Origin: an uncultured Actinomycetota bacterium
GTDB lineage: Bacteria > Actinomycetota > Actinomycetes > Mycobacteriales > Mycobacteriaceae
DNA length: 64,000 nt
Reading direction: 5' to 3'
Assembly: GCA_963830605.1 (NCBI GenBank)
Contig: CAWHML010000007.1
Span: forward strand, 30,053 to 94,052
Shown one piece after another: positions 3,133 through 12,866 of this stretch. Every line of letters begins with the position of its first letter. Position 1 is the first letter of the stretch. The notes beneath the pieces are model-generated. The model was given only the letters and a program-made list of their open reading frames with translations. It made no database searches and was not told the DNA's origin. Made by a program: the position numbers and the translations under genes.

Positions 3133-3262
3133 CGCGCCTCTCCCTTACGCCGCTAGCTAGTACTTAGCCAGCGTAGTGGCGCAGGTGCTAAGACCTGCGT
3201 GCGATCAAGGAGATGTAGAGGACTGCAAACTGCGGCTTCCCGAATTCTCGAGTGTCGATGCG

Positions 3263-3853
3263 TCAGCCGCCATCTTGGCCGCGCCGGAAACAGGCCCAGC
3301 ACCGATGGATGTTGTTTATCGTCTCGACCCGACCACCGCAGCTTCCGCATCGGCTGACCGAGTCATGGTAGCGCCCTGGGGCGGTCACTTCCGGCGGTAA
3401 GGCCGCCCAAGCTTTCTCTCGAGCCGCGGCACCCTTTTGACACTCCGCCCAAACCGCTTGCTCGGCCTTCGCGTCCGCGGTTACTTTCTCTAGCTCGTCT
3501 GTCCTCGCCAGCTGTTGCTTTGAAGTCAATGCGGCGTAGCTCTCGCGCTCCTGCTCGGCACTGTAGAAATCGTCGCTGAGCTGTTGCACTCTGCCGGCGA
3601 GGTCGTGCAGAACTCTGTAGGCGTTTCCCTGGAACTCGTGCCGAGAAAATTTACGAACATTGAACTCGTCGGTGCCGGGATAGCTCATTTCGGAAACATG
3701 CGTTTCCAACACACTGATCGTTTTTTCGAGGTCGCCGATCGACGAACCGATCGTGGCCAGCGATGAATCAGTGAGCATGTGAGGATCTTCCTTCGTCGAC
3801 AGCTTGGGTTGCGAGGACGAGGTGGATGCCGCCGATCGTTTCCGGGTGGACAT
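3263..3853 (-). CDS. Hypothetical protein, coiled-coil with C-terminal CxxC-x12-CxxC zinc ribbon
   Basis: 196-aa ORF; GAAAGG Shine-Dalgarno ~7 nt before the ATG; ends ...RCGSCGGRVETINNIHRCWACFRR; alternative start at MLTDSS. Confidence 0.6.
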   Translation of the reverse strand: MSTRKRSAASTSSSQPKLSTKEDPHMLTDSSLATIGSSIGDLEKTISVLETHVSEMSYPGTDEFNVRKFSRHEFQGNAYRVLHDLAGRVQQLSDDFYSAEQERESYAALTSKQQLARTDELEKVTADAKAEQAVWAECQKGAAAREKAWAALPPEVTAPGRYHDSVSRCGSCGGRVETINNIHRCWACFRRGQDGG

Positions 3854-3984
3854 TCGTTTGCCTTTCAGTGTCTAGGTGAGTCACTAGCGTGGTGGATAGT
3901 TAGTCAAAACGAAGCATTGCGATTCGCCGTCTCCGTTTGGTCAATGAAATACGCATCATCGAGCCACGTCGACGCCGATGCCAG

Positions 3985-4260
3985 TCAATAGGCACGAAGA
4001 GCGTCTCGAAGTCTCATCTCATCATCGGTGCGCCGAAAGTCGCGATACCTCTGCCCGTAGGCCCATAGCGCGGCCCTTTCGGCGAACTGGTCCGCAAGGG
4101 AAATAATGGCTGGATCGTCACACTCGCTGGGACTGGCCGCACAATCCATCAACTCGACGGCGGCGCAAGGGATATCGGGGAGAGCAACTGTCGGATCGGC
4201 CAGGCTGGCTTCCACCAGAGCAGAGAGTTTCGCCGTCGCGGTGTGTATCGGGGTCGTCAT
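3985..4260 (-). CDS. Hypothetical protein (orphan, ~91 aa)
   Basis: ORF MTTPIHTATAKLSALVEASLADP...LRDALRAY, co-oriented with the zinc-ribbon ORF; no recognisable family. Confidence 0.4.
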   Translation of the reverse strand: MTTPIHTATAKLSALVEASLADPTVALPDIPCAAVELMDCAASPSECDDPAIISLADQFAERAALWAYGQRYRDFRRTDDEMRLRDALRAY

Positions 4261-4492
4261 GTCAACATCTCTGTCTTCTGCTCGGTCGGGCGTTCCTGGA
4301 AGCCGTTCAGTGGCTACCGGTTCGACGCGCAGGAAACAGCGAAGTCTCAAGCGGTAAGGCCATGCTACCCGGCCTTGCCGGCGATCACCCCGGACGCGGC
4401 GTATGCGCGGGTGAAGACATCGGGCTTTGTCGTTACGTGAGTGAGGGTGTGCCGATCAAACGGATGTTGAGGCTGAGCTCTACCATCGCCGG

Positions 4493-5182
4493 GTGACCTC
4501 CTCACGCCCAATCGATTCTGCCGGGCTGGCTGGCGATGGCCGCTGCCAGACGGCCGGGGGTTCCGCGGTCACCCGCGACGCGGCATGGCATCGCCGCGCG
4601 CACTGGGCTCGACGGCTGGCATGGATCAGTCTTACCGTCATGCTGACCGAGGGAGCGTTGGGTCTCTGGCAGGGTTTGGCGGTCGGGTCCATCGCCTTGA
4701 CCGGATGGGCGTTGGGCAGCGCGCCGGAGGGCTTGGCCAGCGCGATGGTGATATGGCGGTTCAGCGGCTCGCGAACCTTGTCGGAAACGGCCGAGCGGCG
4801 CGCGCAACAAGGCGTTGCGGTGTCGTTCTGGTTGACCGCGCCCTACATCGCCGCCGAGTGCATTCGCGACTTGCAGGATGCGCACCACGCTGAACGCTCT
4901 CTCATCGGCATTGTGCTGACTGCGGTCGCCTTGATGTTGATGCCGCTGCTCGGCCGGGCCAAACATCAGCTCGCCGCGCGACTGGGTTCGGCGGCCACCG
5001 CCGGTGAAGGCACGCAGAACTACTTGTGCGGAGCTCAGGCGGCGGCGGTGCTGATCGGCCTTGTGGTGACCGCCGGCTGGCCGGGCTGCTGGTGGCTCGA
5101 CCCCGGCATCGGTCTCGGCATTGCGGCCGCGGCCATTTGGCAGGGGATCCGCGCGTGGCGCGGAAAAGACTGCGGCTGCTGA
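4493..5182 (+). CDS. Cation efflux (CDF-like) integral membrane protein, Rv3271c ortholog
   Basis: WARRLAWISL...EGALGLWQG...AGEGTQNYLCGAQA...WRGKDCGC matches recalled Rv3271c; syntenic with ctpC. Confidence 0.88.
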   Translation: MTSSRPIDSAGLAGDGRCQTAGGSAVTRDAAWHRRAHWARRLAWISLTVMLTEGALGLWQGLAVGSIALTGWALGSAPEGLASAMVIWRFSGSRTLSETAERRAQQGVAVSFWLTAPYIAAECIRDLQDAHHAERSLIGIVLTAVALMLMPLLGRAKHQLAARLGSAATAGEGTQNYLCGAQAAAVLIGLVVTAGWPGCWWLDPGIGLGIAAAAIWQGIRAWRGKDCGC

Positions 5183-5187
5183 AACCC

Positions 5188-6171
5188 GTGGGTGCGACAG
5201 AGCCGAACAAGCTGCCGCCACTCCGGCGCGGCGAGGTCCGCAACCTTGGTCCGATCGCGGGAACGGGCTCAGCGACGAAGATACTTGGCGTCGGCGGCAC
5301 CGACTTGATGGAAATCACTCCCGACGGGACGCTGGCGCTGGGGGGCGATACGTACACCGGTGACGGGAACAGTCGAGGCGACTGGAGCAGGTCGCAGGCG
5401 TTCAGGGTCAAGCCCGAGTCGATCAACGACCCCGATGGTGTCAAATTCGACGGCACTTTCGGTCATCGCAACGACCTGTATGCCGATCCGCTGGCGCCAG
5501 GAGCGACGACGCAACTGCCGGCGGGCACCGTCATGGTCAACGGCAATACGTATGTGATGGTGAACAACACCGTTTTCGATGATGGCCTGTTCCCGGTCAA
5601 TTCGAGATTGGTCGAGGTGGATCCGGATGACGTGGGCTGGAAAACCGTGGCCGGTTCGGTACGGTCGGCCGATCATGCGGGCGGTTCACAATCACAGATC
5701 AGTGGATATCAAGCCGAAGACGGCGCGGTGTACATCGTTGCCTGCGGCCAGGGCCGATGCCATCAGCCGGTGCTGTATCGGGCCGACCCGAACACCTTCA
5801 CCGACCGGTCCACCTGGCAACCGCTGGGTCGCGACGGCGCCGGAAGACCGCTGTGGGATGCGCCCGGCGCGCCGGCAACCCTGGAGTCACGGTATGGCGA
5901 GGTGAGTCTGCGTCTCATCGAGGGCAGAACTGTGCTGTCGGGATTCAATGCGTCCACCGGTCGGGTGGAAATCCGTGTGGCCGACGACCCGACGCAGTTG
6001 TTCACCGAAAACTTCAAACTCACCGTGGTCGCATCGCAACACGATGTTCCGCAGAACTATGGCGGGTACATCGTGCCGGGTTCGACGCTGGACAGTATGA
6101 AAATACTTGTCAGTCAATGGCACGGTGACACCTACAACGTGCAGCAGTTCGAAGTCAACGCCCACCGCTAG
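5188..6171 (+). CDS. DUF4185-family protein (Rv3707c-like, candidate GH183 endo-D-arabinanase)
   Basis: Motifs GPIAGTG, GGTDL, GDT, QLPAG, SQISGY, FTDRSTW, SGFNASTG and YGGYIVPGSTLD..VSQW match recalled Rv3707c; the GTG start at 5188 is uncertain. Confidence 0.8.
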   Translation: MGATEPNKLPPLRRGEVRNLGPIAGTGSATKILGVGGTDLMEITPDGTLALGGDTYTGDGNSRGDWSRSQAFRVKPESINDPDGVKFDGTFGHRNDLYADPLAPGATTQLPAGTVMVNGNTYVMVNNTVFDDGLFPVNSRLVEVDPDDVGWKTVAGSVRSADHAGGSQSQISGYQAEDGAVYIVACGQGRCHQPVLYRADPNTFTDRSTWQPLGRDGAGRPLWDAPGAPATLESRYGEVSLRLIEGRTVLSGFNASTGRVEIRVADDPTQLFTENFKLTVVASQHDVPQNYGGYIVPGSTLDSMKILVSQWHGDTYNVQQFEVNAHR

Positions 6172-6211
6172 GGCGGTCGACAACTGTAGCTGCCGCGCTG
6201 GCGATCCTCCA

Positions 6212-8374
6212 CTACTCCAAACGGTACCGAATCAGCCGAGAGCTGTTCGTCACCACCGCAACTGACGACGCATTGTGCAAAATCGCCGCCAGCACCGGCG
6301 AAAGTGCCCCGCCGGCGCCGATCAGCAGGCCGGCAGCGTTGACCGCGATCGACATGCCGTAGTTCTCCCGGATGACATCGACCGCCCGCGCGCCCAGGTC
6401 CCGTACGTCGAGCAGGCGGTTCAAGTCGTCGTTGGCCAGCGCCACGTCGGCAGTCTCCACCGCGACGTCGGTTCCGGCCAGACCCATCGCGATGCCGATG
6501 TCGGCGGCCGCCAGTGCGGGGGCGTCGTTGATGCCGTCGCCGACCATCCCCACGACATGACCGTCCTTTTGCAGATCGCGCACCACCTGCAGTTTGTCGT
6601 CCGGCAGCACTTCAGCCCGCCACTCGTCGATGCCGAGCTCGCCGGCGACCACCTCGGCTATCTCGGGATGATCACCGGTGAGCATGACAATGCGGCGAAT
6701 CCCGTTGTCGCGCAACCTCTTCAATACCTCCGGCGCCTCAGGCCGTACCTCGTCGCGCAGACTGATCAGCCCCACCAAGGTGCCGTCAACCGCCAGCAAC
6801 AGGGGAGTTTCGGCCTGCCGGCGCAGCTTGTCGACCCAGTCCGCCGCTTCGGCGGATACGTCGACGTTCTCCGAGCTCAGTAACGACGGGCTGCCCAGCA
6901 GCAGGGTGCGTCCGTCCGCCCAGGTGCGCATGCCGAGACCGACCAGCACTTCACACTCCTCGTGCGGAGGGATGCTGATGTGACGTTCTTCGGTTGAGCG
7001 GATCACCGCCTCGGCCAGCGGATGCCGGGAATGGATCTCCGAGCTGGCAGCATAGGCCAGCACCTGCTCGGGTTGCCAATCATCATGCATGGCAACGATA
7101 TTGGTGACAACCGGGCGTCCGACGGTGAGTGTCCCGGTCTTGTCGAAGACAATGGCGTCTACTTGTCCGGCCTGTTCCAGGTGGGATCCGCCTTTGATGA
7201 GGATGCCGCGGCGGGCCCCGTTGCCGATCGCGGCACTGATCGCGGTCGGCGTCGCGAGTCCCACTGCGCAGGGGCAGGCGATCAGCAGCATGGTCATCGC
7301 GCGCCGCACATCCCCGGTCAGCGCCAGGGTGATAGCGGACACGATGAACGACGTCGGGACGAATCGACGGGAGAAGTTGTCTCCGACGGTCTGGATGGGG
7401 GCCCGGTCGTGCTGAGCCTCTTCGACGCGGGCGATGATGCGGCCGATCGCGGTCTGACTCCCCACAGCGCGGGCGCGTACCACCAGACGGCCCCGCACGA
7501 CCACCGATCCGGCGTGCACCGCCCCACCGGCAACGATGCTGACCGGCAGGGTTTCACCGGTGATCGCGGACTGATCGACCACGGCTTCGCCGTCGACCAC
7601 GTCACCATCGACCGGAATCGCCACGTGGTCGTGCACCACCACCTCGTCGCCGATCTGCACGGTGTCGATCGGCACCTGGACTTCGGTACCGGCGTCCGGG
7701 CCGGCTGTCACGCGGATCCAGGCGGTGTCCTGGGTTCCGCGTAACAGCTCGGAGATGGCGCGCCGGGTCCGCCGCAGCGTGAGATCTTGCAGGTATTCAC
7801 CGATGTTGAGCAGCCACAGCACCGTCAGCGCGACCACATTCTCGCGCAGCACCAGGCTCGCCACCGTCGCCGCGGACACCAAGGCGTCGGTACCCGCCCG
7901 GCCGGAGCGAAGCGAGCGCAGCGCGCCGCGCAGGAAGGGATACCCGGTGAAGACGGTGACGCCGGTGGCGGCCAGTCGTCCGGTCGGTCCCAGCAACGGC
8001 GGGCGGGCGAAAACATAACGTCGCACGCCCAGTAAGGCCAGCGCCGCACCGCCGATAACCATGCGCAGCACGTCAGTATTACGAATATCCGCCGAGTGCG
8101 GCGCGCGTACCGGGATCAGCTGGGCGGCGAGCCGGGCGGCCTGTCGGATTGCGGAGAGCACCGCGGTGCGGTCACAGCGCTTGGGCGAATACCACACCAC
8201 AACCGAGCCGGTGCGCGGATAGGCGTGGACCACCCGGACACCGTTCTGCTGGGCGACCGTCTCCTCTACGGCTACCGCACGGCGGGGATCCGAGCGTACC
8301 CACGGCACCCGGACCCGCATCCGTCCGGCGGCGTCGGAAACGACGAGCAGGTCAGTGTTGGTGCTGGTCGACAT
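6212..8374 (-). CDS. ctpC: Heavy-metal (Zn/Mn)-translocating P1B-type ATPase CtpC
   Basis: VVSDAAGRMRV N-terminus; TGE, CPC, DKTGT, SRHPLAE and GDGINDAPALA motifs; start approximate. Confidence 0.95.
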   Translation of the reverse strand: MSTSTNTDLLVVSDAAGRMRVRVPWVRSDPRRAVAVEETVAQQNGVRVVHAYPRTGSVVVWYSPKRCDRTAVLSAIRQAARLAAQLIPVRAPHSADIRNTDVLRMVIGGAALALLGVRRYVFARPPLLGPTGRLAATGVTVFTGYPFLRGALRSLRSGRAGTDALVSAATVASLVLRENVVALTVLWLLNIGEYLQDLTLRRTRRAISELLRGTQDTAWIRVTAGPDAGTEVQVPIDTVQIGDEVVVHDHVAIPVDGDVVDGEAVVDQSAITGETLPVSIVAGGAVHAGSVVVRGRLVVRARAVGSQTAIGRIIARVEEAQHDRAPIQTVGDNFSRRFVPTSFIVSAITLALTGDVRRAMTMLLIACPCAVGLATPTAISAAIGNGARRGILIKGGSHLEQAGQVDAIVFDKTGTLTVGRPVVTNIVAMHDDWQPEQVLAYAASSEIHSRHPLAEAVIRSTEERHISIPPHEECEVLVGLGMRTWADGRTLLLGSPSLLSSENVDVSAEAADWVDKLRRQAETPLLLAVDGTLVGLISLRDEVRPEAPEVLKRLRDNGIRRIVMLTGDHPEIAEVVAGELGIDEWRAEVLPDDKLQVVRDLQKDGHVVGMVGDGINDAPALAAADIGIAMGLAGTDVAVETADVALANDDLNRLLDVRDLGARAVDVIRENYGMSIAVNAAGLLIGAGGALSPVLAAILHNASSVAVVTNSSRLIRYRLE

Positions 8375-8633
8375 CGGAGATCGCCGGGGTGGGTGCCTCT
8401 TCACCGAGACGCTCACGGGCTTCGGCCATCACGTCAGCCAGCCGGAGCCGGGCCGACTCGGCGGCCTCCTCGGCCCGACGGGTTCCGCGCAGACTCCATT
8501 CCGCAGCGGTCACGGCCGATTCGTGAATCGGAGCCTTAGCCACGGCTTTGCGGAGCACCTCATATGCGGTCACCCCGGCCAGCCCGGTGACTACCGTCGT
8601 AGCTGCCTTCGCGAAAAGCCCGGAAACCGCCAT
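8352..8633 (-). CDS. DUF1490 P-ATPase-associated chaperone-like protein PacL1 (Rv3269 ortholog)
   Basis: 93 aa, one N-terminal TM segment, Ala/Glu-rich helix, His-containing C-terminus; directly upstream of ctpC. Confidence 0.9.
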   Translation of the reverse strand: MAVSGLFAKAATTVVTGLAGVTAYEVLRKAVAKAPIHESAVTAAEWSLRGTRRAEEAAESARLRLADVMAEARERLGEEAPTPAISDVDQHQH

Positions 8634-9531: not shown

Positions 9532-11013
9532 CTAATTGACACATTCGGGTCGATCCGAACCTGCGGTAATGATCGGCGACACCGGCGGCGCAGAGCCGTC
9601 GGCCGAGCCTGCGCCGGCCGCCGCCGAACCCGAGCCCGCCGGCAGCGTCGAGCCCCCGCCCTCCAGACCCGAGCCCGGTCCGCTGTAGTCGTTGGCCAGC
9701 ACGACGCGAACAATTCCCGGCGGTATCGCCGCGTTGCCGATCACGGGCAACCCACCGAGATCTTTGGCCACCGCCTGCGCGCCCACGTCGTCGGCTTTGG
9801 CCGCCTGCACCTGGCTGCCGGCCACGTGCGCCGCGTCGTTGTTGCCGACGGTACCCACACTGAAACCGTTGTCCGTCAACACGTTGGACACCGCGGCAGC
9901 CAAGCCGTTGATGTCGGTGTCGTTGACCACATCCGCGGTGGTCTTGCCGGGCGTGTACGCCAGCTCGTCGGTCTTGCCTTGCTCTTGATCGTGCAACAGG
10001 CTGGCGACCCACTCCTGAACTTTGTTGGGGTCCACTCGCACCACGCTGTGCATACCGTCGTCGCTCCAGCCGGACTCGTCGACCACCGGGATGGTGGCGA
10101 AGGCGACGTTGCCGGCGGCCAACTTCTCCAGCTGCTTGACGAAATCGATGATGTCCCAGCCGGACGACAGCACGACAGAACGTTGGATGGCCTGCTGCAG
10201 GCGGTCCAGTCGGGCTGGACTGGACAGCGTGTTGGCGGAGATGACTTGGTGGGCCAGCGACGCCATCACCACCTGCTGGCGCACCACCCGGTCGAGGTCG
10301 CCGCGGGGCAGATCGTGGCGCTGCCGAACGAAACTGAGCGCCTGCGGCCCGTTGAGCCGCTGCCAGCCGGCCGGGAAATCGGCGCCCGACATCGGTTCGT
10401 AGACAGGCTCTTTCAGGCATACGTTGACTCCGCCGAGCGCGTCGGTGATCAGCGCGAAGCCGAGCAGCCCGATCTCGGCGTAGTGGTCCACGGTCACGCC
10501 GGTTAGGTCGGCGACGGTCTTGATCAGCGCCTCCCGGCCGGCTTCGGTGCCGCGGGCTTCGGCCTCGTCGAGTGCGGTGCCGGACTCGACCAGGCTGACC
10601 CGCTTGTCTTCCTTGACCTGGCCGTAGACCCCGTTGATCTTGGTCTTGCCCAGCCCGGGCGCGACCACGTAGGAGTCACGCGGAATCGAGATCGCGGTAG
10701 CGGACCTGCCGTTGTTGGGAATCCGGACCAGGATGATCGTGTCGGTGTTGGTCGCGACGTCGTCGCCGGCGCGCAGCGTAGCCAGCTCTTCGTTGGTCAG
10801 TGGGTTGCCGTGGGCGTCGGCGCGGCTGTCCATGCCGACCAGCAGGATGTCGATCGCGCCGTCGTCGCCGCCCTGCCCGAGTGAAGGGGCGAAGACGTGA
10901 TAGATCCCGTCCTCGAAAGACCGGATCTTGCTCCACGCGACGCCGGTGCCGAGAACCACGGCGACAGCCGCGACGGTGGCGATCACACGAGTCACATGTT
11001 GCGCAGGCATCAC
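9532..11013 (-). CDS. LytR-CpsA-Psr (LCP) family arabinogalactan-peptidoglycan ligase, Rv3267 ortholog
   Basis: N-terminal TM; ILLVGMDSR, NTDTIILVRIP, SIPRDS, ALSFVRQRH and GDLDRVVRQQ; LytR_C domain. Confidence 0.92.
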   Translation of the reverse strand: MMPAQHVTRVIATVAAVAVVLGTGVAWSKIRSFEDGIYHVFAPSLGQGGDDGAIDILLVGMDSRADAHGNPLTNEELATLRAGDDVATNTDTIILVRIPNNGRSATAISIPRDSYVVAPGLGKTKINGVYGQVKEDKRVSLVESGTALDEAEARGTEAGREALIKTVADLTGVTVDHYAEIGLLGFALITDALGGVNVCLKEPVYEPMSGADFPAGWQRLNGPQALSFVRQRHDLPRGDLDRVVRQQVVMASLAHQVISANTLSSPARLDRLQQAIQRSVVLSSGWDIIDFVKQLEKLAAGNVAFATIPVVDESGWSDDGMHSVVRVDPNKVQEWVASLLHDQEQGKTDELAYTPGKTTADVVNDTDINGLAAAVSNVLTDNGFSVGTVGNNDAAHVAGSQVQAAKADDVGAQAVAKDLGGLPVIGNAAIPPGIVRVVLANDYSGPGSGLEGGGSTLPAGSGSAAAGAGSADGSAPPVSPIITAGSDRPECVN

Positions 11014-11080
11014 TGTAGATTACTTGCGCCTCAGCGGGATGTGGGGTAGCTGCGGTCTCGGCGTGCCAGACTTCTGAGGT

Positions 11081-11956
11081 ATGACCACCCCCGCGAGGAT
11101 CGTGATCACCGGGGCCGCCGGCCAGCTCGGAACACGGTTGACGGCTGACGCGGCTGGCGAAGGCCGGGATGTGCTAGCGCTGACGTCGGCACAGTGGGAT
11201 ATCACCGACGCCGCCGCCGCCGAGCAAATCGTCGTAAACGGCGACGTGGTCATCAACTGTGCGGCGTACACCAATGTGGATGGCGCCGAGAGCGACGAAC
11301 CCGCCGCCTACGCCGTCAACACCGCCGGGCCTGCCAACATCGCCCGGGCCTGCGCGCGTGCCGGTGCCCAGATGGTGCACATCTCCACCGACTATGTCTT
11401 CAGCGGCGATTTCACCGGATCGGCACCTCGCCCCTACGAGCCGGGTGACGAACCGTCACCGTTGAGCGTCTACGGCCGCACCAAGCTGGCGGGTGAATTG
11501 GCGGTGTTGGCAACGCTGCCCCAGGCGGTCGTGGTGCGTACCGCCTGGGTTTACACCGGCGGCAGCGGCGGCGATTTCGTGGCCACCATGCGTCGGCTGG
11601 CGGCCGGCGACAGCACTGTCACGGTGGTTGACGATCAGACCGGTTCGCCTACCTACTTAGCCGACTTGTCCGCGGCGCTGCTGCAGGTGGCCGATGGTCG
11701 GGTGCGCGGCCGGATGCTGCACATTGCCAACGACGGGGCGGTTACGCGGCATCAGCAGGCCAGCGCGGTGTTCGAACTGGTGGGTGCCGACCCGCAGCGG
11801 GTGCGGCCGGTCAGCAGCGAAACCCAGCGCCGGCCGGCTCGGCGGCCGCCCTACTCAGCGCTGTCGAGCCGGCAGTCAGTGCAGGCCGGTCTCACGCCGT
11901 TGCGGCCCTGGCGGGACGCGCTTGCGGTCGCTCTCGGGGTAGCCTCGCGGCCCTGA
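11081..11956 (+). CDS. rmlD: dTDP-4-dehydrorhamnose reductase
   Basis: GAAGQLG, INCAAYTNVD, HISTDYVF and YGRTK motifs. Confidence 0.95.
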   Translation: MTTPARIVITGAAGQLGTRLTADAAGEGRDVLALTSAQWDITDAAAAEQIVVNGDVVINCAAYTNVDGAESDEPAAYAVNTAGPANIARACARAGAQMVHISTDYVFSGDFTGSAPRPYEPGDEPSPLSVYGRTKLAGELAVLATLPQAVVVRTAWVYTGGSGGDFVATMRRLAAGDSTVTVVDDQTGSPTYLADLSAALLQVADGRVRGRMLHIANDGAVTRHQQASAVFELVGADPQRVRPVSSETQRRPARRPPYSALSSRQSVQAGLTPLRPWRDALAVALGVASRP

Positions 11957-11972
11957 CCGCTACTCTCGACGC

Positions 11973-12866
11973 GTGAGTGACGTCCTGTCGGTCGTGACGG
12001 TGACCTATTCGCCGGGCCCGCACCTCGACCGCTTCTTGGCGTCATTGTCGCTGGCCACCGAGCGACCGGTACAGGTGCTGATGGCCGACAACGGTTCCAC
12101 CGATGGGACACCGCAGGCGGCGCTCGAGCGCTATCCCGATGTGCGAATGTTCGACACCGGCGACAACCTCGGCTACGGGGCGGCGATCAACCGCGCGGTT
12201 GCCCAGCTCGCGCGGGAAGGTGGCGCCGCCGGCGAGTGGATCGTGGTGGCCAACCCTGATGTGCAATGGGGTCCGGGCAGTATCGATGCCTTGCTCGAAG
12301 CTGCCGCTCGATGGCCTCGTGCGGCTGCGCTGGGCCCGCTGATCCGAGAACCCGACGGGTCGGTGTACCCGTCGGCGCGACACTTACCCAGCTTGGTCAG
12401 AGGCGGCATGCATGCGGTTCTCGGCCCGCTGTGGCGAAAAAACCCGTGGTCGCTGACTTACCGGCAAGAGCGGCTCGAGCCCACAGAGCGGCCGGTGGGC
12501 TGGCTGTCCGGATCCTGCCTGCTGATGCGCCGCGCGGCCTTCGACCAGGTCGGCGGCTTCGACGAGCGTTATTTCATGTATTTCGAGGATGTCGACCTCG
12601 GTGACCGGCTGCAGAAGGCCGGCTGGCTGAACGTCTACGTGCCTTCTGCTGAGGTGCTGCACCACAAGGGCCATGCCACCAGCCGCGATCCCGCGCACAA
12701 TCTGACCGCTCACCACGAAAGCACCTATATATTTCTCGCCGACCGGTATTCCGGTTGGCGGCGTGCCCCGCTGCGGTGGACGATGCGCGCCGGGTTGGCG
12801 CTGCGCTCACGGCTGATGGTGCGCAGCGCGCGGCGCAGACAGGCAGGGAGGCGGCGGGCACGATGA
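11973..12866 (+). CDS. wbbL1: dTDP-Rha:GlcNAc-PP-decaprenol rhamnosyltransferase WbbL1 (GT2)
   Basis: ADNGSTDG, ANPDV, GWLSGSCLL and YFEDVDLG; follows rmlD. Confidence 0.93.
   Translation: MSDVLSVVTVTYSPGPHLDRFLASLSLATERPVQVLMADNGSTDGTPQAALERYPDVRMFDTGDNLGYGAAINRAVAQLAREGGAAGEWIVVANPDVQWGPGSIDALLEAAARWPRAAALGPLIREPDGSVYPSARHLPSLVRGGMHAVLGPLWRKNPWSLTYRQERLEPTERPVGWLSGSCLLMRRAAFDQVGGFDERYFMYFEDVDLGDRLQKAGWLNVYVPSAEVLHHKGHATSRDPAHNLTAHHESTYIFLADRYSGWRRAPLRWTMRAGLALRSRLMVRSARRRQAGRRRAR

Follow-up and report, generated by a model that had tools for sequence, protein, structure and literature searches.

We analyzed a 64,000-nucleotide stretch of contig CAWHML010000007.1 from an uncultured Actinomycetota bacterium (here called the window) and examined a payload-only, endo-D-arabinanase-like gene of glycoside hydrolase family 183 (GH183; DUF4185) at positions 5188 to 6171 of the + strand. 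This gene probably encodes the payload of an EatA-like polymorphic-toxin module of a type VII secretion system (T7SS), from which the targeting domain and a helper gene were deleted while the payload itself remained under selection. We put the probability of this reading at roughly 0.7. GH183 was recognized only recently, in housekeeping enzymes (AraH1 and AraH2) and in T7SS-delivered inter-mycobacterial toxins (EatA). The gene described here would represent a third state of the family, namely a payload stripped of its delivery apparatus on which purifying selection continues to act in several lineages of soil mycobacteria.

The open reading frame (ORF) encodes 327 amino acids (aa) from a GTG codon at 5188 to a stop codon at 6169 to 6171, within a frame that is open from 5026. 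The GTG lies 5 nt past the TGA (5180 to 5182) of an upstream gene for a membrane protein resembling cation diffusion facilitators (CDF). The public gene call (P0001, 338 aa), which begins MARKRLRLLKPVGATEP, uses an alternative GTG start that adds positions 5155 to 5187 of the + strand. This 33-nt extension runs over the 3' end of the CDF-like gene, which is read in another frame, and does not encode a hydrophobic leader.

The protein matched Pfam PF13810 (DUF4185) with 136.5 bits (curated cutoff, 39.5 bits), with residues 28 to 321 covering profile positions 5 to 308/309; no NCBIfam model matched the ORF. In a phmmer search of the PDB, 8an0 was recovered with an E value of 1e-62, and three EatA chains were recovered at about 1e-44 to 1e-41. 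An AlphaFold2 (AF2) model built from 61 homologues had a predicted local distance difference test score (pLDDT) of 92.9 and a predicted TM score (pTM) of 0.91. The top Foldseek match to this model was again 8an0 (2.4e-23; TM, 0.74/0.85), which is Rv3707c under the title 'Endo-D-arabinofuranase AraH2 from Mycobacterium tuberculosis'; EndoMA1 (8ic1/8hhv) was next at about 1e-15. The model and its Foldseek likeness predict an AraH2/EndoMA1-like beta-propeller fold with the first strand at residue 17.

Both catalytic residues of the family are in place. D39 in the TDL motif (codon at 5302 to 5304, + strand) pairs with D39 of Rv3707c and D206 of EatA, and D54 in the GDT motif (codon at 5347 to 5349, + strand) pairs with D56 of Rv3707c and D228 of EatA; each of the two columns is at least 90% conserved among the 61 homologues. 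D39 and D56 are the catalytic Asp residues of AraH2/Rv3707c (PMC10115798), while in EatA D206 is the nucleophile and D228 the acid/base, with the D228A mutant inactive (PMC13444075). The window protein is therefore a GH183/DUF4185 domain with its catalytic Asp pair intact, and it is probably still an active retaining endo-alpha-1,5-D-arabinofuranase. A preliminary description of the window had proposed an ORF of about 327 aa of the DUF4185 type, with a series of Rv3707c motifs, an N-terminal Asp pair (TDL and GDT), and clear divergence from Rv3707c. The ORF is real and intact, the profile search agrees with the family assignment, every motif named is found in the translation, and the Asp pair aligns with the catalytic residues defined by mutagenesis. 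The divergence is likewise borne out: identity to Rv3707c is 48%, whereas the 120 top-scoring Rv3707c relatives reach 80% or more.

Only five close relatives of the window protein (74 to 88% identity) were found among 5.8 billion sequences, after which identity dropped to about 53%. Together with the window protein, they formed a monophyletic six-member GH183 clade in a neighbor-joining tree. Three of the five came from metagenome-assembled genomes (MAGs) named 'uncultured Actinomycetota bacterium MFD09603.bin.1.259 /.4 /.127'. The gene order in these MAGs was that of the window: an LCM methyltransferase gene (- strand), the CDF-like gene (+), the short GH183 gene (+), ctpC (-), DUF1490, Lcp, rmlD, wbbL, and manB. 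The fourth relative, P0005, was found on contigs from soil runs (L005 to L008) with the same neighbors as in the window. The fifth relative, P0004, is 504 aa long and is encoded on a 2.5-kb soil contig (L002). On L002, the CDF-like orthologue (ending WRGKDCGC-stop) is followed by a 94-aa gene that directly abuts the P0004 gene. The C-terminal 320 residues of P0004 were 80% identical to the window protein, and its first ~180 residues had no counterpart there. The CDF-like gene was upstream of the GH183 gene in all relatives, including the full-length locus on L002.

DNA alignment with L002 indicated that the window and the loci of three relatives (L001, L003, and L004) are without the segment carrying the 94-aa gene and the N-terminal domain (N-domain) of P0004, a length of ~0.85 to 0.9 kb. 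In the window, the deletion junction is at 5183 to 5205 (+ strand) and consists of a 5-nt spacer and six codons (VGATEP) apparently left over from the linker between the two domains; from the NKLPPL codons (5206) onward, the window again matches the full-length gene. The window, L001, and L003 have this junction in common, with a further in-frame loss of 12 nt there in the window. The junction of L004 differs again from this one. L005 keeps a homologue of the end of the P0004 N-domain (VGRTGEFGVYESGGPETNKLPPL versus VGRIGEFSFSETGGPGGFGTNKLPPL; VGRTGEF..GGPETNKLPPL) over about 15 to 25 codons, and because this remnant has no start codon upstream, L005 appears to carry a different deletion. From the differing junctions and the L005 remnant, we infer that the short genes are deletion derivatives of the long gene and that two or more deletions, either independent of each other or nested, would have taken place. 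Their precise number depends on the tree, which the GH183 and CDF-like genes resolve differently, and the targeting domain was possibly lost more than once.

The window sequence itself was found solely in soil metagenome runs, at a low share, and four such runs yielded fragments of only 100 to 450 nt. Two soil contigs crossing the junction (loose ends at 5190 and 5203) were short-allele, L003-like sequences. A scan of Joint Genome Institute (JGI) metagenomes did not find further full-length alleles.

The ratio of nonsynonymous to synonymous substitution rates (dN/dS; Nei-Gojobori, pairwise) in the GH183 domain ranged from 0.11 to 0.19 across all pairs. For the window, L001, and L003, the alleles with the common junction, dN/dS was 0.139 to 0.147 (bootstrap 95% intervals, 0.09 to 0.23) at a dS of 0.41 to 0.67. 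All five short alleles had an open frame and kept both Asp residues; in a simple neutral simulation, a frame stayed open with a probability of 0.06 after 0.1 substitutions per site and of 0.003 after 0.2. Taken together, the dN/dS values and the open frames argue that the payload-only gene has been maintained by selection after loss of the delivery domain. The flanking genes had dN/dS values of 0.07 to 0.19 (CDF-like gene) and 0.05 to 0.09 (ctpC), and since the dS of the flanks was close to that of GH183, vertical inheritance at the site is indicated. The payload had a GC content of 0.62 (0.61 in L002), against 0.68 in the N-domain and 0.67 to 0.69 in the flanks. This lower value fits a modular, once-mobile payload; amino acid composition could contribute to the difference.

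The segment that was lost has features that resemble those of a T7SS effector. AF2 placed helices in the P0004 N-domain at residues 15 to 45, 51 to 82, 88 to 118, and 124 to 165, with W48-E-G50 in the first inter-helix loop, and the 94-aa protein of L002 has Y75-LLN-E79 (YLLNE), a YxxxD/E-type motif. In PE/PPE pairs, WxG on one partner and YxxxD/E on the other form a composite T7SS signal (PMC13444075). No named family was found for the 94-aa helper. When the N-domain profile was searched against 1.84 billion cluster representatives (50% identity clusters), it matched 963 proteins at an E value of ≤1e-3 and 641 at ≤1e-10, one family member being a RefSeq Mycobacterium protein. Among the 150 matches listed, the domain started within the first 25 residues in almost all, and total lengths ranged from about 100 to 618 aa. 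Four of 20 sampled proteins had a recognizable payload (a barnase-type Ribonuclease, Abhydrolase_8, a GH-E HNH/EndoVII nuclease, and a calpain-type protease [Peptidase_C2]), and the payloads of the other 16 had no Pfam match. Published eat loci have one or more Tap-like genes and a helical bundle, the toxin payload varies, and helper and immunity genes differ in number from locus to locus; alpha/beta hydrolase and HNH nucleases are among the payloads met most often (PMC13444075). By analogy, the arrangement on L002 and the N-domain family appear to match this architecture, and the P0004 N-domain would define a large unnamed family that marks apparent T7SS polymorphic-toxin effectors.

A word-indexed search for relatives of the N-domain found two. 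A JGI metagenome contig (L012) carries an eat-like module at 6518 to 7908, in which the N-domain of the protein P0121 is 56% identical to that of P0004 and a preceding 93-aa helper with a YxxxE motif is 46% identical to the 94-aa protein (E = 2e-18). P0121 is 234 aa long and ends in an unrelated Cys/aromatic-rich C terminus of ~55 aa; none of the proteins of this module has a Pfam family. The 127-aa gene downstream in L012 is a candidate for an immunity protein. A complete canonical eat-type locus was found on a 27-kb mobilizable plasmid of Mycobacterium paragordonae (L015; NZ_CP025549.1), made up of a 117-aa helper gene, the gene for a DUF4185 toxin of 547 aa whose N-domain has a WxG motif, and an overlapping one for a 179-aa lipoprotein with an LSGC lipobox. 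DUF4185 genes similar to that of L015 are also carried by M. avium plasmids.

We propose that an EatA-like module was inserted between the Rv3271c-like (CDF-like) gene and ctpC in an ancestor shared by a small clade of soil mycobacteria, all of them uncultured. L002 would be the surviving ancestral state, with the CDF-like gene, a 94-aa Tap/PE-like helper, and a 504-aa protein combining the N-domain and GH183. A deletion of ~0.85 to 0.9 kb would have taken the helper and the targeting domain and brought the GH183 gene next to the CDF-like gene, leaving its GTG 5 nt past the CDF-like stop. The deletion presumably also took the module's own promoter, and transcription and translation would then depend on the upstream gene, by read-through and termination-reinitiation. 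A scan of positions 3800 to 6400 found no promoter or terminator, and no obvious Shine-Dalgarno sequence was seen before the GTG at 5188. We also considered, and rejected, a programmed frameshift that would join the CDF-like protein to GH183, as neither the spacing nor the overlap is conserved among relatives, with gaps of 5 and 24 nt and, in L005, a distance of 207 nt to the called start.

The window protein has no recognizable means of export. No N-terminal hydrophobic segment was found (best 12-residue Kyte-Doolittle mean, 0.1), and in the AF2 model the propeller starts at residue 17, which leaves no space for a signal peptide before it. The helical WxG targeting domain present in the syntenic P0004/L002 is absent from the window gene, and there is no Tap-like helper gene directly upstream (5-nt gap). 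The preliminary description had noted the missing signal peptide, in agreement with hydropathy and the AF2 model, and had suggested cytoplasmic action or non-classical export. The missing signal peptide does not speak for a non-classical route, because the comparative loci show the N-domain deleted, and the absence of a signal peptide would thus correspond to the loss of the T7SS-targeting domain. The same description had tied the gene, as an accessory housekeeping wall-remodeling enzyme, to the lcp-rmlD-wbbL locus and had raised a possible link to metal stress. The comparative loci point to a toxin-module remnant instead, and the metal link had only gene adjacency behind it, which would be a by-product of the deletion.

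With T7SS delivery lost, the protein would stay in the cytoplasm, away from wall arabinan. Since both the toxicity and the delivery of EatA required ESX-4 (PMC13444075), a cytoplasmic copy should be harmless, and therefore no immunity gene would be needed, which would explain its absence. Because the payload is still selected, some use must exist. The most likely use would be intracellular hydrolysis of D-arabinofuranoside oligomers, which is the weakest step of our proposal; the alternative to a cytoplasmic role would be export by a so far undescribed route. We consider it a somewhat unlikely possibility that the payload has been domesticated in a more specific sense, with a leaderless GH183 coupled to the Rv3271c-like protein, acting either inside the cell (for example, in degrading imported D-arabinan fragments) or at the envelope via a route dependent on the membrane protein. 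In that event, it would be the first member of GH183 whose action is non-secreted or non-canonical, and it would exemplify an inter-bacterial toxin that was disarmed and became a resident enzyme. Provided that the enzyme is active, the locus raises the question of what an arabinanase without an export signal is selected for. It also offers a natural pair of full-length and truncated proteins for asking what the N-domain and the Tap-like protein add to secretion.

It is important to note that several points weigh against our reading of the gene as the remnant of a toxin module. The full-length form rests on one 2.5-kb Logan contig (L002). AF2 confidence over the P0004 N-domain was low because of a shallow alignment, no Pfam family is dedicated to the N-domain (its PPE match, 18 bits, was weak and below threshold), and the eatA N-domain of the L015 plasmid matched the profile weakly (hhalign probability, 62%; E = 7.7e-5). 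No EatI-like immunity gene was seen beside the truncated gene or, within the 28 nt available, beside the full-length gene, and a self-toxic effector without adjacent immunity is unusual. The last ~10 of these 28 nt past the L002 stop resemble the ctpC 3' end, and the stretch is too short to exclude an immunity gene elsewhere. Near the locus, we found no lipobox ORF or lipoprotein candidate, although EatI homology itself was not searched. Moreover, purifying selection is unexplained for a protein without a known cytoplasmic substrate.

Other explanations account for parts of these data. The gene could be an accessory housekeeping paralogue resembling AraH2, co-regulated with metal efflux and acting on the cell's own arabinogalactan/lipoarabinomannan after non-classical export. 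The intact GH183 active site, the purifying selection, and the position 5 nt past the CDF-like gene and ~3.4 kb from lcp-rmlD-wbbL-manB all agree with such a role, as does the fact that the nearest relatives outside the clade are GH183 paralogues of ~375 aa with Pro-rich N termini. However, in L002 the helper gene and the 180-aa targeting domain separate the CDF-like gene from GH183, housekeeping enzymes have Sec signals whereas the window protein has none, and there was no sign of metal regulation, the promoter and terminator scan being empty; we regard this explanation as unlikely. It is quite unlikely that the gene is an orphan toxin cassette, that is, a silent payload reservoir able to recombine into a full-length gene of the eat type at some other genomic site. 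Orphan cdiA-CT/cdiI modules of contact-dependent inhibition (CDI) systems and Rhs modules also present a C-terminal toxin domain without the N-terminal delivery region, the N-domain family is modular with many payloads, and the GC content of the payload (0.61 to 0.62), below that of the N-domain and flanks, is consistent with mobility. CDI and Rhs orphan modules normally keep an immunity gene and an upstream homology block and lie downstream of an intact gene. The window gene lacks these traits: no immunity gene accompanies the payload, only about 6 to 10 linker codons are left upstream as a recombination handle, and the gene occupies the ancestral locus and not a position downstream of an intact gene. 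A dN/dS of 0.14 over a dS of 0.4 to 0.7 would also be abnormal for a silent cassette.

The direction of change could in principle be the reverse, with the short GH183 gene ancestral and L002 having gained the helper and N-domain by insertion, so that a toxin arose when a resident enzyme was captured. In favor of this, the short form accounts for five of the six alleles known, and divergence in GH183 and the flanks places one of these five, L004, as the outgroup. Against this stand the N-domain remnant of L005, which without a start codon looks like a deletion scar and not a precursor, and the presence of at least two junctions among the short alleles; in addition, a leaderless ancestral GH183 would lack a route to its substrate. 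We consider this direction very unlikely. Least probable of all is that the gene is a decaying relic, a functionless pseudogene-to-be in which disabling mutations have not yet accumulated. The loss of the delivery domain and helper gene, the varying start positions among relatives, and the lack of an obvious Shine-Dalgarno sequence or promoter are what decay would produce, but the alleles with the common deletion have a dN/dS of 0.14 with confidence intervals far below 1, all five short alleles are open where the neutral expectation is 0.003 at 0.2 substitutions per site, and the extra 12-nt loss at the window junction is in frame.

Comparison with other GH183 proteins further defines the position of the gene. 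AraH2/Rv3707c (8AN0; PMC10115798) is the best PDB match by both sequence and structure, and the window protein shares with it the predicted five-bladed propeller and equivalents of D39/D56, but AraH2 carries a Sec signal and a Pro-rich N-terminal linker, and the window protein has neither. Housekeeping GH183 enzymes carry Sec signals, and AraH1 and AraH2 are both present in virtually all mycobacteria (PMC13444075). Identity of the window protein was 48% with Rv3707c and 44% with M. abscessus EatA. A search with the Rv3707c domain recovered, as its best 120 clusters, proteins of 333 to 387 aa that were 80 to 100% identical to it, including those of M. marinum, M. kansasii, and M. lepromatosis. 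The one AraH2 orthologue examined (P0297) has the order leuA-ask-asd-AraH2, like Rv3707c, while the window gene is not at asd/ask/leuA but between the Rv3271c-like gene and ctpC. A translocated Rv3707c orthologue is thus ruled out by identity, synteny, and the history of the locus. A short DUF4185 ORF should therefore not automatically be annotated as an Rv3707c-like wall-remodeling enzyme.

The nearest relatives outside the clade were GH183 proteins of ~375 aa with Pro-rich N termini, 50 to 54% identical over the whole domain, such as P0011 of Mycobacteroides franklinii and P0112 of Mycolicibacterium brisbanense. They differ from the window protein in having a Pro-rich N-terminal region of 70 to 100 aa with a conserved AVLAAAVQALALP-type segment; they are found at other loci and have no T7SS-type domain. 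The idea that they are fast-grower AraH2 orthologues was rejected for the two members located, neither of which is at the asd locus. The group of ~375 to 400 aa (P0007 to P0120) has a conserved amphipathic segment, AVLAAAVQALALPQLPQP, after a Lys/Pro-rich region and before the catalytic domain, and it has the appearance of a third GH183 paralogue group, widespread among environmental mycobacteria.

EatA of M. abscessus subsp. massiliense and M. avium subsp. paratuberculosis (9MXM, 9MYT, and 9MZ5; PMC13444075) has a GH183 payload with the same Asp pair. The P0004 locus resembles it in having a small upstream helper and a helical WxG N-domain followed by GH183, and the N-domain family of P0004 is polymorphic, as are the eat loci; L002 has one Tap-like gene compared with two for EatA. 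In the window gene, by contrast, the helper gene and the targeting domain are gone, and unlike L015 it has no EatI lipoprotein gene downstream. Gordonia phage lysin A and Mycobacterium phage Myrna gp244, annotated as lysin A/endolysin, are GH183 proteins that also lack a signal and reach the wall by another device, and their GH183 domains are 27 to 30% identical to the window protein. Phage and plasmid origins were both considered and rejected: the best phage matches were 27 to 30% identical, with no prophage context at the locus, and the best plasmid matches were 37 to 39% identical.

The Rv3271c-like CDF-type membrane gene lies at 4493 to 5182 on the + strand as its longest ORF, with a C terminus ending in CGC; an alternative ATG at 4640 gives a 180-aa form, as called in relatives. 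The match of its product to Cation_efflux was weak (24.3 bits, below threshold in Pfam), and it also fell below TIGRFAM thresholds. The protein corresponds to a CDF-type transmembrane domain without the cytoplasmic C-terminal domain, and an invariant DCGC closes it at all six loci. A spacer of 40 nt (6172 to 6211) separates the stop codons of the convergent GH183 and ctpC genes and leaves no room for an EatI-like gene. The ctpC-like gene for a heavy-metal P-type ATPase follows at 6212 to 8416 on the - strand (E1-E2_ATPase; TIGR01525, 559 bits) and is a flanking marker of the insertion site, outside the module. Past ctpC are DUF1490, an Rv3268-like gene, Lcp, RmlD, WbbL, and ManB, the GH183 gene being ~3.4 kb from lcp-rmlD-wbbL-manB. 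The placement given in the preliminary description, between the Rv3271c-like gene and ctpC and close to this cluster, is as described, and so is the close abutment on the upstream membrane gene, a 5-nt gap being near enough for co-transcription. Rv3271c and ctpC are, we presume, adjacent in M. tuberculosis H37Rv.

No other DUF4185 gene was present in the 64-kb window. A scan of genome collections for a second GH183 copy gave only the three related MAGs (MFD09603 bins), and P0022, P0057, and P0297, sought as second copies, belong to other assemblies. The window contained no tRNA genes and no Rfam matches at the gathering threshold, and repeats around the locus were limited to chance-level short matches, with no transposon ends found. 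A stretch of ~1.3 kb (~3177 to 4480) that separates the LCM methyltransferase gene from the CDF-like gene is missing in L001, L003, and L005; it has a lower GC content (0.54 to 0.60) and is located in the presumed promoter region of the CDF-like/GH183 pair. It contains two minus-strand ORFs, one at 3263 to 3853 (196 aa), coiled-coil-like with a C-terminal CxxC...CxxC pair, and one at 3985 to 4350 (121 aa), neither of which had a Pfam, phage, or plasmid match. In L004 (MFD09603.bin.1.127), the most divergent relative, a gene for a 415-aa GT28/EryCIII-like glycosyltransferase (11121 to 12368) lies between the short GH183 gene and ctpC, a spot that is empty at the other loci. In L003, ctpC is without its usual stop codon, so that its annotated 3' end overlaps the 3' end of GH183 on the opposite strand by 17 nt (11013 to 11029) and its product finishes with ...RYRLDPPSGGR.

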